Of a stretch of DNA of 64,000 bases, positions 4,175 through 59,557 are shown piece by piece. The stretch lies in NCBI RefSeq assembly GCF_058153355.1, contig NZ_CM177019.1; one strand, written 5' to 3'. How positions within the stretch are numbered: the stretch's first letter is position 1; each line of letters starts with the position of its first letter. Below the pieces are notes generated by a model. It searched no databases. It was not told the origin of the DNA and saw only the letters and a list, made by a program, of their open reading frames with translations. Made by a program: the position numbers and the translations under genes.

Positions 4175-4307
4175 TTGATGTTTGTCGGTGAACACTCTCC
4201 CGAGTAGGACAAATCCGCCGGGAGCGGATTTGAACGTTGCGAAGCAACGGCCCGGAGGGTGGCGGGCAGGACGCCCGCCATAAACTGCCAGACATCAAAT
4301 CAAGCGA

Positions 4308-4335
4308 AAGGCCATCCGAAAGGATGGCCTTTTTG
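4308..4335 (+). terminator. rrn operon terminator T2-like hairpin
   Basis: aaaggccatccgaaaggatggccttttt; perfect 8 bp stem, GAAA loop, T-run; preceded by a duplicated 5S 3' fragment (ctgccagacatcaaat at 4285-4300). Confidence 0.85.
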
Positions 4336-7484: not shown

Positions 7485-8510
7485 TTAACGCACGGGCGGC
7501 GCGTACTGAATACCGCCGTTATTCCAGAGATTATTTTGCCCACGTTTAATCTTCAGGGGGCTTTCTGAACCTACGTTACGCTCAAAAATTTCCGAGTAAT
7601 TACCCACCTGTTTGATGATGTTGTAAGCCCATTTATTATCCAGCTTCAGATCTTTACCGTAATCGCCCTCTTTACCCAGCAGATGCGCCATATCAGGCGT
7701 TGCAGGATTAGCCGCTTTTTCATCAACGTTTTGCGAATTAACGCCCATCTCTTCAGCATTCAGCATGGCGAAAAGCGTCCAGCGCACTATAGAGAACCAT
7801 TCATCATCGCCACGACGAACTACCGGCCCAAGCGGTTCTTTAGAGATAACTTCCGGTAAAACAATCCATTCAGCTGGGTTGCTTAATTTGATGCGCAGGG
7901 CATACAGTTGTGATTGATCCGAGGCCAGCGTATCGCAGCGGCCAGATTCCAGTGCCTTCGCGGATTCGTCAGAGCGATCGAAAGTCACTGGTGTGTACTT
8001 CATATTGTTTGCCTTGAAGTAATCGGCGACGTTGAGTTCGGTATCAGTACCCGCCTGAATACAGACTGTTGCGCCATCCAGTTCTTTCGCGCTTTTTAAT
8101 CCCGCTTTATCGTGCGTCAGGAAACCAATGCCGTCATAATAAGTGACGCCAGTAAATGCCATTCCCATACCGGCATCGCGAGAGGAAGTCCAGGTCGTAT
8201 TACGGGAGAGCAAATCCACCTCCCCTGACTGTAAAGCCGTGAAGCGTTCTTTTGCAGTGAGCGGGGTATATTTCACTTTCGTGTCGTCACCAAATACAGC
8301 TGCCGCAACACCACGACAAACATCTACATCAATACCTGAAAACTTACCGTCAGCATCGGCATAAGAGAACCCAGGTAATCCATCACTGATCCCGCATTGC
8401 ACAAAACCTTTTTTCTGAACGGCATCAAGCGTCGCGCCAGCATGCGCCTGATTTGCAACGGCAAGCAGCACGCTGGCGGCAGCCAGTGTGGCTATCATCA
8501 TCTTTTTCAT
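7485..8510 (-). CDS. yhdW: Periplasmic amino-acid binding protein of ABC transporter
   Basis: 341 aa with N-terminal signal peptide MKKMMIATLAAASVLLAVANQAHA; operon with yhdXYZ. Confidence 0.88.
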   Translation of the reverse strand: MKKMMIATLAAASVLLAVANQAHAGATLDAVQKKGFVQCGISDGLPGFSYADADGKFSGIDVDVCRGVAAAVFGDDTKVKYTPLTAKERFTALQSGEVDLLSRNTTWTSSRDAGMGMAFTGVTYYDGIGFLTHDKAGLKSAKELDGATVCIQAGTDTELNVADYFKANNMKYTPVTFDRSDESAKALESGRCDTLASDQSQLYALRIKLSNPAEWIVLPEVISKEPLGPVVRRGDDEWFSIVRWTLFAMLNAEEMGVNSQNVDEKAANPATPDMAHLLGKEGDYGKDLKLDNKWAYNIIKQVGNYSEIFERNVGSESPLKIKRGQNNLWNNGGIQYAPPVR

Positions 8511-8939
8511 AATGCTTCCTGTGAGGCGAAAATTATCGTTATAGGACGTTTGGGAAACGTCTTTTACCTGTCTGTGGCCATCCTCTTATAAGCAAAAGTA
8601 GTGCCAGCTTTTGCGCACGATTTCGCGTCGCAATAAGCTGAGTGTAGACAGGAAATAATAAAAACAGCGCCCCGCAATGGTGCGAAAATGAAACATGCGC
8701 CACATTTTGGCGCAAAATATTTACGCATTTTTACTAAGCAGAATAATGATTGTTAGCGTGAGTATATTTCTGGTAGGAATTGTGAAAATTAAATTGATGC
8801 GTTATTTCGAAAGCAGCGAAATAACGCGATATAACATGCTAAATCAGCAGGGAATTACACAGCAGAATATAGCAATATTTTATCTTATGGAGAGATACTG
8901 TATCGTTAAACAGAGCGCAGTACTCCGCGCCCTGTTCAG

Positions 8940-9161
8940 TTATTTCGACAGAGCGATGATCCCCATCGTCAGGCCAGCAACAGCTGCTGCCCCGCCAGCA
9001 ATAGCCCCAGCCGTTTCCCAGTTATCCTGAGTCGTGCCTTTCATACAGATATTGGTGTGAACCAGTTGACCCTGATCGTCATAAACCGGAACGCAGGGCG
9101 AATCGTGAGCACAGCCCGCCAGCAATGCGGTGAGCAATGCTACAGGAATTAATCTTTTCAT
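8940..9161 (-). CDS. yhdV: Small lipoprotein
   Basis: 73 aa; lipobox LLAGC in signal peptide MKRLIPVALLTALLAGC; Gly/Ala-rich C-terminus. Confidence 0.75.
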   Translation of the reverse strand: MKRLIPVALLTALLAGCAHDSPCVPVYDDQGQLVHTNICMKGTTQDNWETAGAIAGGAAAVAGLTMGIIALSK

Positions 9162-9413
9162 GGTGTTACCTCAGTAATAAACGCTAACGCTTAATAAGTT
9201 AACTCTCTTATTAACGAGCTGAATGCCATTTTATCACTGGAGGTTATAAATCTTGCGGCATGAATAATGACAAATTATGTGAATTGTAAAAATAGTGAAG
9301 GGAGCGGGAACTATAGAAAGTTTTTAAAGAGTGAGTAGAAGAATATCTTATTAATTTTTATGGGTTTCACTGAAAATAATAAAGGCACCCGAAAGCGCCT
9401 TTATGTTTCTGAT

Positions 9414-12400
9414 TTATCCTTTAAAGCAACGGCGGATAACCACAAAGAACACCGGCACGAAGAAGATTGCCAGCAACGTTGCAGAGACCATCCCGCCCAT
9501 TACCCCGATACCCACTGCGTTCTGCGCGCCACTGCCGGCACCGTTACTGATAGCTAGCGGTAATACGCCGAGAATAAAGGCGAGAGAGGTCATCAGGATA
9601 GGACGCAGACGCATACGTACTGCCACCAGTGTCGCTTCAACAACACCTTTACCCTCTTTCTCCATGAGATCTTTAGCGAACTCAACAATCAAAATAGCGT
9701 TTTTGGCCGACAAGCCAATTGTCGTTAGCAAGCCCACCATAAAGTAGACGTCATTTTTTTGATTAAAGAGTGTCGCCGCCAGTAGCACGCCGACAATCCC
9801 TAACGGCACGACTAACATAACCGAGACAGGAATTGACCAGCTTTCATAGAGTGCAGCAAGGCACAGGAAAACAACCACAAAGGAAATTGCTACCAGAGCG
9901 GGAGCTTGGTTTCCCGATAAGCGTTCCTGATATGACATACCCGTCCAGTCATAACCAATGCCAGCTGGTAATTGTGATGCAAGGTTTTCCATCAACGCCA
10001 TGGCATCGCCGGAACTGGTTCCTGGCGCGGCTTCCCCCTGAATCTCCATTGACGGCAGACCGTTGTAGCGCTCCAGTCGCGGAGAGCCATACACCCAATG
10101 TGCAGTGGTAAAGGCAGAGAATAGCACCATTTCGCCGTTGGCGCTGCGGACATAAAGTTTATCGACATCTTCTGGCAGCATACGGAATTTGGCATCCGCC
10201 TGAACATACACCTTTTTCACGCGACCACGGTCAATGAAGTCGTTAACGTAAGTCCCACCCAACGCCGTTGAAATGGTCTGATTGATGTCAGAAAGTGAAA
10301 CACCTAATGCCTGCGCCTTTTCCTGGTCAACTTCCAGTTTAAACTGCGCGGTGTCTTCCAGACCATTAGGACGCACGCTGACTAAGCTGGCAGGATGTTG
10401 CGCCGCCATGCCAAGCAACTGGTTACGGGCCTGGGTCAGGGCATCGTGACCCAGCCCAGCCTGATCAATTAACTCAAAGTCGAAACCCGTTGCCGTGCCC
10501 AGTTCAACAATGGCTGGCATATTGAATGGAATGACAAAACCGTCGCGGATCTTGCCCAATTCCATTTTGGCACGATGGATTACCGCTTCCGCACTGTTTT
10601 CGTCACCACTACGCTCTTCCCACGGTTTCAGACTGACGAAAGCCATACCGGCATTTTGTGCCTGGCCGCTGAAGCTAAAGCCGTTAACCGTAAAGACACT
10701 TTCTACGTTCGCTTTCTCGTTCTTCAGATAGTAATCCGTCACTTGATCCAACACTTTTTGCGTCCGCTCTTGCGTCGCGCCAGCGGGTAACTGAATCATA
10801 GTCAGAAAGACACCCTGATCCTCTTCAGGTAAGAAGGAAGACGGAAGACGTAAAAACAACACCACCATTCCAGCAACAATTAGTGCATAGATCAGTAAAT
10901 ATCGTCCTGTGGAACCGAGGATTTTGCCGACGCTGTTGGTGTAGTGGTTAACGCTATGATCGAAGGTGGTATTAAACCAGCCGAAGAAACCGCCCTTATT
11001 TTCGTGATGCTCAGCAGAGACGGGTTTGAGCAGTGTTGCACATAACGCTGGGGTAAGAATCAATGCCACCAGAACAGAAAGCGCCATTGCCGAAACGATG
11101 GTGATAGAGAACTGGCGGTAAATTGCCCCAGTAGAACCGCCGAAGAATGCCATTGGAATAAATACCGCTGACAGCACCATCGCGATACCCACCAGTGCGC
11201 CCTGGATTTGCGACATTGATTTTTCCGTCGCTTCTTTTGGCGGGAGCTTATCCTCCATCATCACGCGCTCGACGTTCTCCACCACCACTATCGCATCATC
11301 GACGAGCAGCCCGATGGCAAGCACCATCCCGAACATAGTTAGTGTATTGATGGAGTAACCAAAAGCGGCGAGGATGGCAAACGTCCCTAACAACACCACG
11401 GGTACCGCAATGGTGGGGATCAGCGTTGCTCGCATATTCTGCAAGAACAGATACATCACCAGGAACACCAGCATAATGGCTTCGAACAGCGTTTTTACCA
11501 CTTCGTGAATAGAAAGCTGGACGAATGGTGTGGTGTCATAAGGGTAGAGAACCTTCATTCCCTGCGGGAAGAATGGCTGTAATTCCGCCAGTTTTGCCTT
11601 AATGGCTTTCGCGGTATCGAGAGCATTCGCGCCGGTTGCCAGCTTAATACCCAGGCCCGCCGCCGGTTTACCGTTGATGCGAGCGATAACGTTATAGTTT
11701 TCACCGCCAAGTTCAACCCGTGCGACATCTTTCAGGCGTACCACCGAGCCGTCACTGTTTACGCGCAGGGTCACTTTGCCGAATTCTTCCGGATTTTTTA
11801 ACCGCGTCTGAGCAATAATCGAGGCGTTCAACTGTTGCCCTGGTAACGCTGGCGTTCCGCCCAACTGTCCGGCAGCGATCTGATCGTTCTGTACCTTCAA
11901 CTGGTTAATCACATCAACCGGCGTCAGTTTATATTTGTTTAGCAGATCGGCGTCCAACCAGATACGCATCGCATACTGTGCGCCGAAAAGCTGTACGTCA
12001 CCGACGCCATTCAGACGGCTAAGCGTATCTTTAACGTTAGAGGCCACATAGTCCGAGATATCGTCCTGTGTGGTGCCTGGGTTATCAGAGACAAAGCCCG
12101 CCACCATCAAATAGCTGCTACTGGACTTTTCAACACTGATCCCCTGCTGCTGTACCTCCTGCGGCAGCAACGGCGTGGCGAGCTGGAGTTTGTTCTGCAC
12201 CTGCACTTGCGCGATATCTGGATCGGTCCCGGACTGGAAGGTAAGGGTAATTGTCACGCTACCGGCGGAATCGCTGGTGGAGGACATATACATCAGGTTA
12301 TCGATACCATTCATATTCTGTTCGATAACCTGCGTCACCGTATCCTGCACGGTCTGCGCATCAGCGCCCGGATAGTTTGCCGAAACAGAAACTGCAGGCG

Positions 12401-12518
12401 GCGCAATGGTTGGGTATTGGGCGACGGGCAATTGTAGGATCGCCAGTACACCCGCCATCATCAGAATAATGGCCAGCACCCATGCAAATATCGGTCGTCG
12501 AATAAAAAAGTTTGCCAT
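9414..12518 (-). CDS. acrF: RND multidrug efflux pump inner-membrane transporter AcrF
   Basis: 1034 aa, 12-TM RND architecture, begins [23 protein letters not shown]; follows acrE. Confidence 0.95.
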
Positions 12519-24187: not shown

Positions 24188-24247
24188 TAAACATCTTCAT
24201 TTCACAACAAAACGTTATCGACGTTTTGTTGTGACACCGAGGTCATT

Positions 24248-49656: not shown

Positions 49657-49686
49657 AAAACCGACGCCAAAAGCGTCGGTTTTTTC
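49657..49686 (+). terminator. Rho-independent terminator after aaeB
   Basis: aaaaccgacgccaaaagcgtcggttttttc. Confidence 0.85.
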
Positions 49687-52581: not shown

Positions 52582-54007
52582 TAATGCCAGTCAGTTAAGC
52601 AACTGACTGGCTCTTTTTCGGGGCTGTGGGGTATTTCCAGGGCCTCTCCTTTACCACTCTCGGGAAGGCCCTTTCCCTTCTTGTCGGTAATTTCACAAGT
52701 TGTCCCATACTTGCAAGATCGCGCATCAGCTCCGGTATACGTCCCGGTGAAGCGCCCTGCAATGTCATCAGCATTCTCATCACCATTCCGCATGATTCTG
52801 AGAAACTCAGTTGATTCGGCCAGTAACCTTTCAGATGTTCCGCCATTTTAATCATCTGATATCTCACCAGATTATAAGCCAGTAAGACACCCCACAGCTC
52901 TTGCTCCACAAGCTCCGGCTTTTTACTTCTCAGCGTCAGCCTGCTCAGTTGCATCGTCTGTTTTATCTCCCTGTATCCCAGTTCGATTTCCCAGCGATGA
53001 CTGTACAGATCCGCCATTTCTCCTCCGGGGAAGCGCATGGCGTCCGTCATCGACGTCAGCAGATGGCAGACTTTTCCTTTGCGCGTCACGGTCAGCAGGC
53101 GGGCTGTCACTTCATTTCCCAGTCCCGGCCACTTTTTTCGTGCCTGCGGGCTGGTTTTCAGCTTCACCAGATGATCGCCTTTACCCAGTTTTCTGATCTC
53201 TTCATATTGCGCTCCCTTTCTGAGAGGTATCATCCAGTGGCGGTGTTCTCCCGCCAGGCTCCAGGCATTTAACAGTCCCAGTGAGTAATAACCTTTATCC
53301 ATTAACGTCAGAGTGTTATCGCCGGTTTGTTCTATAAGTTGCTCAGCAAGCTCATTTTCGCTGTTCTTCATCGTGCCGAAGGCTGCAGCCGTCAGCAGAT
53401 GGCTGGTCAGTTCCATCTGGCAGACCATTTTGACCTGCGGGTAGAGCGCCGGGTTCCCGGCATGTGTCTGGCGGGGGAAGGCTGCATCGTTCTCTGGTGT
53501 ATCCGGTGTGCGCCAGAACACACCATCGATGGCCAGCAGGGTCAGGCCGCACCAGTGCGGATGCGGCGTGGCGTTATGCCAGAGCTGCGCTGTTTTCGTG
53601 AACACGCGGCGGACAGCCTCACTTCCCAGGCGCTGGCGGGCCTGAATAACGGCACTGGGGGCAACGAAGGGGCGATTGCCCGGCAGCATGATGTCCAGGC
53701 GATTCACAATCTGGTGAAGAGGTTCTTTACGCTCAAGCGCCATGCCAACAATACACCAGACCATCATTTCGAGGGGAAGACGGCGCTTGCGTAGCGTTAC
53801 AGTACCTGATTCGGCAAGGCAACGAGAGATGAGTTCGGGGTCGAGGTAATCCCCCAGAGAAGTCAGTGGGTTACGCAGAGAATCGTAACGGGATACCAGA
53901 TCAAGAGCCTGTCCAATGTGCATAAAAAAATCCGGAAACAAGTGAGCGTTTCCGGATTCTTACACAGCCACTGGATCGGTCAACTGATCCTTAACTGATC
54001 GGCATTA
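52582..54007 (-). mobile_element. IS4 insertion sequence, complete (1426 bp)
   Basis: Terminal 18 bp inverted repeats taatgccagtcagttaag (left) / reverse complement of cttaactgatcggcatta (right), 16/18 match; single DDE transposase ORF; flanked by 12 bp direct repeats. Confidence 0.9.
52595..53923 (-). CDS. IS4 transposase
   Basis: 442 aa from ATG 53923 ([40 protein letters not shown]...), DDE transposase; length and N-terminus match my recollection of IS4 InsG. Confidence 0.88.
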
Positions 54008-59529: not shown

Positions 59530-59557
59530 AAAAAAACCCGCTTCGGCGGGTTTTTTT
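59530..59557 (+). terminator. Rho-independent terminator of rplM-rpsI operon
   Basis: aaaaaaacccgcttcggcgggttttttt. Confidence 0.9.

Follow-up and report, generated by a model that had tools for sequence, protein, structure and literature searches.

The window analysed here is a 64,000-nucleotide stretch of contig NZ_CM177019.1 (NCBI RefSeq assembly GCF_058153355.1), and its local genes all lie on the minus strand: acrF (9414–12518), yhdV (8940–9161), which encodes a 73-aa lipoprotein, and yhdW (7485–8510), which is intact (341 aa) in the window and frameshifted in K-12. This layout agrees with the annotation of the K-12 homologue, namely acrF, a membrane protein, a frameshifted substrate-binding protein, yhdX and yhdY. 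The yhdV–yhdW spacer contains a perfect 11-bp inverted repeat at 8799–8827, with arms at 8799–8809 and 8817–8827 (100% complementary) separated by a 7-nt spacer. It reads gcgttatttcg-aaagcag-cgaaataacgc on the plus strand and GCGTTATTTCG-CTGCTTT-CGAAATAACGC on the minus strand, the sense strand of yhdV and yhdW. On K-12 it falls at about 3,418,746–3,418,774, a placement made on a derivative of MG1655 length and good to some 15 bp. With 112 nt to the yhdV stop on one side and 288 nt to the yhdW ATG on the other, the coordinates bear out the initial annotation, which had described a perfect 11-bp dyad with a 7-nt spacer about 110 bp after yhdV and about 290 bp before yhdW; the second dyad listed there, gcgcca-cattt-tggcgc at 8697–8713, is also present and can be extended to 7-bp arms at 8696–8714. 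Two open reading frames in or overlapping the spacer were set aside: an 11-codon frame (MLYRVISLLSK), whose stop falls within the promoter-side arm, lacks a ribosome-binding site and loses its ATG in three other Escherichia lineages (L002–L004, described below), and a plus-strand frame of 111 aa (8695–9030) runs antisense to yhdV and was treated as spurious.

Perfect repeats of this class are not a composition effect. When perfect inverted repeats with arms of 11 bp or more and a loop of 3–10 nt are counted, the window has seven distinct ones, and 60 dinucleotide-preserving shuffles of it average 0.07; such repeats are thus about 100 times commoner in the window than in the shuffles. The six others lie at 4307–4332, 24203–24233, 49657–49683, 52586–52611, 53929–53958 and 59530–59557; the one at 24203–24233 reads CACAACAAAACGTTATCGACGTTTTGTTGTG, and those starting at 4307, 49657 and 59530 have A and T tracts and look like classical terminators. 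Being palindromic and intergenic, the 11-bp repeat could in principle belong to a repeated palindromic family (REP/BIME, ERIC or MITE) or to a known structured RNA family. However, it is a single-copy feature, found at a median of one place per genome and a maximum of two among 5,355 E. coli genomes at BLAST sensitivity, which speaks strongly against a repeated family, and an Rfam scan of 8300–9400 with E up to 10 returned only sub-threshold noise: no hit was better than E = 1.7, and those overlapping the repeat had E = 1.8 or worse, far below gathering scores. Membership in either kind of family is thus improbable in the extreme.

Directly 3′ of the yhdV stop codon lies a GC-rich hairpin (8907–8938, minus strand; 14-bp stem, −21.9 kcal/mol, z = −5.7), followed by a short T tail, so that the whole intrinsic terminator spans 8899–8938. 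This hairpin is the true yhdV terminator and was overlooked in the initial annotation. The comparison covered 80 related loci, 77 of them non-Escherichia, drawn from Escherichia, Citrobacter, Enterobacter, Kosakonia, Cedecea and other genera; in nearly all, yhdV is followed by an orthologous AAAGCGCGG...CCGCGCTTTT hairpin (A-tract/GCGCGG...CCGCGC/T-tract), and the stems differ in sequence across loci with their pairing kept. The T-tract is polymorphic within E. coli: it is interrupted (CTCTGTTT) in the window and in most aligned strains and reads CTCTTTTT in K-12, ST131 and ST95, and the d'Aubenton-Carafa d-score is accordingly +20 for the K-12 allele versus −7 to −19 for the window allele. 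Because its U-tract is interrupted and its d-score is low, the yhdV terminator looks leaky in this strain. The shift in d-score from about −7 to +20 with the T-tract allele suggests that lineages may not all show the same degree of read-through into the yhdW control region.

The 11-bp repeat had itself been proposed as the intrinsic (Rho-independent) terminator of yhdV, and it does provide a hairpin on the correct strand downstream of this gene. The region of the repeat folds with −13.9 kcal/mol (z = −2.8) in the sense direction and −14.7 kcal/mol (z = −2.2) in the antisense direction. The stem-loop itself, over 29 nt, reaches −12.4 to −13.9 kcal/mol with G-C at five of its 11 pairs, compared with −21.9 kcal/mol for the yhdV hairpin. 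Its 3′ tail, AUCAAUUUAAUUUUC, has only four T in the first 8 nt (nT = 0.92), and a terminator scan that requires at least five T in the 8 nt after the stem did not call the repeat, owing to this U-tract rule. The d-score is −59 for the sense strand and −63 for the antisense strand; a terminator reading on the plus strand, where a T-run is also lacking, was rejected at the latter value. The terminator reading of the initial annotation is not borne out by these figures: stem stability, U-tract and position all speak against it, since a canonical and conserved terminator hairpin stands between the repeat and the yhdV stop. That the repeat terminates yhdV transcription intrinsically is very improbable. 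In the supplement of a Term-seq study (PMC7815308), no entry was found for yhdV or acrF, and we assume that acrEF-yhdV was perhaps not expressed there. The same data set does list one antisense RNA 3′ end early in the yhdW gene, at K-12 position 3419118 on the minus strand, corresponding to about 8441–8455 on the plus strand of the window, which is unrelated to the 11-bp repeat. The Cappable-seq and SMRT-Cappable-seq supplements gave no entry for the coordinate range or the genes of the locus.

On the yhdW side of the spacer, a sigma-54 promoter (CTGGCACTACTTTTGCT; 8591–8607, minus strand) lies 70 nt from the yhdW ATG and is the exact motif mapped by sigma-54 ChIP-seq in K-12 (PMC4591121); from this motif, the yhdW start site would be at about 8580. 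An NtrC ChIP-seq peak, not base-resolved, has been assigned to yhdWXYZ (PMC4066584), and genomic SELEX with the RpoN holoenzyme also recovers the yhdV–yhdW spacer (PMC8743547). Using the 17-bp NtrC consensus TGCACCAnnnTGGTGCA from the latter study, two NtrC-like boxes with canonical spacing were predicted on the minus strand, each matching 10 of 14 consensus positions: box A, the 17-mer TGCGCCAAAATGTGGCG at 8698–8714, centred at about −126 relative to that start site, and box B, CGCACCATTGCGGGGCG at 8668–8684, centred at about −96 and 30 bp from box A. Their placement fits the criteria for NtrC sites, namely about 100–140 bp upstream of a sigma-54 promoter and a pair about three helical turns apart, and the NtrC/sigma-54 control region of yhdWXYZ extends over about 8580–8714. 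The sigma-54 promoter is found with no or one mismatch in almost all of the 80 related loci, and both boxes occur at equivalent positions across genera in an alignment of 80 sequences (79 related loci and the window).

The second dyad (8696–8714, minus strand) overlaps box A. It had been put forward, like the 11-bp repeat, either as an intrinsic terminator or as a regulator-binding dyad, and the second of these readings is supported by the overlap with a predicted NtrC box (10/14) whose position is kept across genera. The first is not, as the d-score is −14, though a simple scan does flag the dyad as terminator-like. The second dyad is therefore better described as a putative regulator site, a predicted NtrC-like box, than as a terminator. 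The 19-bp palindrome has a spacer 2 bp too long for an NtrC box, and the part kept across genera, TGCnCnA-nnn-TGTGGC, is offset by 2 bp from the 6-bp palindrome, because of which the perfect 6-bp palindrome in E. coli is partly coincidental.

Further elements were observed around this control region. A 12-mer, CTGTCTACACTC (8640–8651, minus strand), separates box B from the sigma-54 promoter and hardly varies among the genera examined; it sits where IHF sites usually lie, and has no known match to the IHF consensus. Of the 80 related loci, 26 have a third NtrC-like box (TGCTTYAnnnnGGTGCA, 10–12/14) that abuts the yhdV terminator; in loci such as L075 and L077 it is found at about −435 from the yhdW ATG, and it is degenerate in Escherichia and Citrobacter. 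The 5′ UTR of yhdW contains a small hairpin, GACGTTTCCCAAACGTC (8545–8561, minus strand), with compensatory stem changes across genera (GGCGTT...AACGCC, AGCGTT...AACGCT and others), and a conserved ATAACGATAA with a C/A-rich stretch is located between this hairpin and the start codon. The hairpin may be a post-transcriptional control element. Just upstream of box A is a perfect CpxR-type direct repeat, GTAAA-N5-GTAAA (8720–8734, minus strand), which has a 6-nt spacer in the other aligned E. coli, including K-12, because of a 1-bp indel; yhdW has been listed among CpxR-regulated genes (PMC9600279).

Within E. coli, a 701-bp region matches 5,378 of 5,426 complete genomes with 90–99.4% identity, which assigns the window to this species. 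A 33-bp segment, made up of the 11-bp repeat extended by 2 bp at either end, was compared across 5,355 E. coli genomes: 3,891 have it unchanged, 1,389 carry one mismatch and 75 carry two. Among 11 aligned strains taken across identity classes, changes are confined to the two outermost positions of the distal arm: strains of ST131 and ST95 have G to A at distal-arm position 1, and O157:H7 carries a C-to-T change at position 2 that still allows a G-U pair in the sense RNA. A rarer variant, in strain FCI1, breaks the innermost pair of the repeat. The 25-bp core has no segregating site in the 11 diverse strains, compared with 0.15 per site in the distal spacer (8755–8939), and the longest invariant run of that spacer, 37 bp at 8789–8825, covers the core (permutation P = 0.03, in a test that was post hoc and on genomes that are phylogenetically related). 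The corresponding 37-mer is identical in 5,213 of 5,355 genomes, while the full 87-bp sequence is common to just 11, and this contrast between a near-invariant block and a varying region suggests purifying selection. There is thus moderate evidence, from these alignments, for constraint, or for a locally low substitution rate, at the core within E. coli.

The situation is different outside the species. Conservation across Enterobacteriaceae had been named as a check on the 11-bp repeat, and it gives a split answer: the repeat is kept within E. coli and has no counterpart in the 77 non-Escherichia loci, where the spacer holds a single long perfect repeat, that of the yhdV terminator. The same 77 loci retain the sigma-54 promoter, the NtrC-like boxes and the yhdV terminator. 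Other Escherichia lineages hold altered forms. In L002, a separate species-representative genome named E. coli, the repeat is represented by TTATTTCGAAccTTCGAAATAA with the stem-loop kept (−9.2 kcal/mol), and in L003 (E. whittamii) by a 7-bp stem (−4.6 kcal/mol). L004 (strain E69) departs from E. coli at 12 of 22 positions in the distal arm and loop, and the hairpin is essentially lost (z = −0.85); its proximal control region is nearly identical to that of E. coli. What all four Escherichia lineages have in common is limited to the promoter-side arm with its flank (TCGAAATAAC[G/A]CAT...), and a pair of half-sites with a 6–7-nt spacer is retained in E. coli, L002 and L003, so that it is the distal arm and the loop that turn over. 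Judged from these comparisons, the 11-bp repeat is a young palindrome restricted to Escherichia. The Escherichia spacer has also lost the distal NtrC-like box of other genera, which suggests relaxed constraint.

The conservation within E. coli could reflect protein binding. Under this possible but rather doubtful explanation, the 11-bp repeat, or its promoter-side arm and flank TCGAAATAACGCATCAATTTAA, would be a DNA operator for a protein modulating yhdWXYZ. That protein could be a regulator binding as a dimer or one of nucleoid type (Nac, Lrp, H-NS or a factor yet to be characterised), and would act on the sigma-54 promoter 233 bp downstream or on a weak sigma-70-like promoter whose −35 element adjoins the repeat on its downstream side. 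The dyad symmetry is perfect, the loop and the 3′ flank are invariant besides the arms, neither of which a simple hairpin needs, and the half-site pair keeps its 6–7-nt spacing in E. coli, L002 and L003. The sigma-70-like match, TTTTCA-16-TATACT at 8788–8761, would put the dyad centre at about −59, but such matches are no more numerous than in shuffles. In the literature, yhdV appears among the genes regulated by Nac and Lrp, and yhdW among the direct targets of Lrp, so that proteins do bind in the vicinity of the repeat. On the other hand, conservation of the repeat stops at the genus Escherichia, whereas the regulated operon and the remainder of its control region are conserved further afield; no second similar site was found in E. 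coli genomes at BLAST sensitivity; and the sequence was found in no paper in a relevant context, with a full-text search for both half-site 9-mers returning only unrelated primer or shRNA matches. As to the comparison with known amino-acid regulator sites that had been suggested, no 17-mer in 8790–8840 reaches 10/14 of the published NtrC consensus, so the repeat does not match an NtrC box. It is not known to fit, in sequence as well as spacing, any of the Nac, Lrp, CRP, FNR, ArgR, IHF, NagC, ArcA and H-NS nucleation motifs. A separate sequence, ATAAAATATTGCTAT (8869–8883, minus strand), fits the Nac-type pattern ATA-N9-TAT. One version of this explanation has the dyad bound, as an operator or a distal upstream activator site, by a so far uncharacterised protein peculiar to Escherichia, which would give the NtrC/sigma-54-controlled yhdWXYZ amino-acid transporter operon a second input. 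This version is distinctly unlikely, and would explain why a 37-bp block is near-invariant in more than 5,200 E. coli genomes with variable flanks. If the palindrome does bind a protein, it would constitute a lineage-specific input to the yhdWXYZ transporter operon. This transporter was recently linked to antibiotic homeostasis and gut colonisation in a 2026 preprint, which ties presence or absence of the yhdW binding protein to different YhdWXYZ roles (bioRxiv 10.64898/2026.05.04.722672).

Alternatively, the repeat could function as an RNA stem-loop on transcripts reading through from yhdV, serving as a back-up aid to pausing or termination or protecting 3′ ends after Rho-dependent termination, and thereby insulating the NtrC enhancer and the sigma-54 promoter from upstream transcription. 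Its sense orientation downstream of yhdV is compatible with such a role, as is the interruption of the terminator U-tract here and in most E. coli (d-score −7 to −19 versus +20 in K-12). Palindromy is kept in different forms in three Escherichia lineages, the O157 variant preserves pairing through G-U, and C outnumbers G on the sense strand of the spacer, as in a Rho loading site. However, the stem is modest and AT-rich and has no U-tract, and protection of 3′ ends would already be provided by the yhdV hairpin, which is stronger and lies upstream. The structure is lost in L004, other genera have no equivalent second hairpin, and the B2 and FCI1 variants break pairs without compensation. Moreover, the searched Term-seq tables contain no 3′ end at the repeat, a result to be read with the assumption that expression of acrEF-yhdV there is uncertain. 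Such a functional hairpin is unlikely.

The sequence of the repeat points to an origin in the adjacent gene. The 3′ end of yhdV, TCGCT-CTGTCGAAATAAC (encoding Ser-Lys-stop; 8929–8947, minus strand), resembles the loop plus promoter-side arm, TCGCTGCTTTCGAAATAAC, with the last 18 nt of yhdV matching at 17 of 19 aligned positions. The local alignment score of 26 was reached by none of 300 shuffles (16.0 ± 2.3). An exact copy of the 9-mer GTTATTTCG occurs at 8939–8947, and with up to one mismatch there are four copies in the 147 bp of 8801–8947, compared with 16 in the remaining ~64 kb. One additional distal half-site copy, GTTATATCG (8827–8835, minus strand; 8/9 match), stands in tandem with the distal arm, so that the distal arm of E. 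coli is tandemly duplicated (GTTATATCGC-GTTATTTCGC), an 11-bp indel relative to the cryptic-clade relatives L002 and L003, which do not have the copy. Local direct and inverted duplication of the yhdV end may thus have built the palindrome: the loop and the promoter-side arm would derive from the yhdV end, and the other arm would be an inverted copy, itself tandemly duplicated in E. coli. Quasi-palindromes can become perfect through template switching or slippage, and the step from an imperfect to a perfect palindrome probably took this route. In line with quasi-palindromes of template-switch origin, close lineages differ by clustered, simultaneous changes in one arm, the arms are exact complements and the adjacent half-site is tandemly duplicated. 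In contrast to them, the lineages differ in the loop as well, and a simple template switch would not account for this.

Combined with the above analysis, the reading that we tentatively prefer, with somewhat less than even confidence, is that the 11-bp repeat is a duplication-derived palindrome with at most a passive role as an RNA stem-loop. It would sit in a fast-evolving, AT-rich spacer between the yhdV terminator (8907–8938) and the control region (~8580–8714), a spacer that appears to be decaying in Escherichia. If transcription reads through the apparently leaky yhdV terminator, the sense transcript could fold into the stem-loop of −12 to −14 kcal/mol, which would at most pause RNA polymerase or slow 3′-exonucleases because it has no U-tract. 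In favour of this reading are the absence of the repeat from the 77 non-Escherichia loci in spite of the control elements kept there, the turnover of distal arm and loop among Escherichia lineages with the promoter-side arm alone fixed, the match to the yhdV end with its cluster of four 9-mer copies, and the loss in Escherichia of functional-looking spacer elements of other genera such as the distal NtrC-like box. Single-copy status, the d-score of −59, the missing U-tract and the lack of an Rfam match point in the same direction. The reduced polymorphism of the core (0 sites in 25 bp versus 0.15 per site) and the 37-bp invariant run argue against it, as does the ~100-fold excess of such perfect repeats over shuffles, most of the others in the window looking functional. 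The repeat does not act as a terminator and does not belong to the conserved enhancer, and in our judgement it probably lacks any regulatory role of its own.

Like intrinsic terminator hairpins, such as the AAAGCGCGG-loop-CCGCGCTTTT structure of yhdV, the repeat is a short stem-loop of the sense transcript downstream of a gene, but it is AT-rich (5/11 G-C), has no U-tract and has a strongly negative d-score, other genera have nothing like it at the orthologous position, and it comes after a genuine terminator. The NtrC upstream activator boxes (TGCACCAnnnTGGTGCA, as at glnAp2) have a likely relative at this locus in the second dyad, which overlaps such a box at the right distance from a sigma-54 promoter and with a partner 30 bp away, whereas the 11-bp repeat shares no sequence with them and lies about 107 bp further upstream. 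With dyad-symmetric transcription-factor operators it shares a perfect two-fold symmetry, a location upstream of a regulated operon and maintenance within the species; it differs from them in that it matches no known motif, is not conserved beyond the genus and has no further copies. The main value of the analysis is a corrected annotation of the intergenic region, with a yhdV terminator at 8907–8938, a sigma-54 promoter with two NtrC-like boxes, and a palindrome outside both. The palindrome is an ordinary, minor, genus-restricted feature and, if its origin is as proposed, a tidy example of a perfect palindrome arising from a gene 3′ end by local duplication. Natural variants of the region exist that could be used as knock-outs: in E. 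coli JE86-ST02 (L091), an IS1 element is inserted about 20 bp to the yhdV side of the 11-bp repeat, and about 70 of the 5,426 E. coli genomes are without the 87-bp region.
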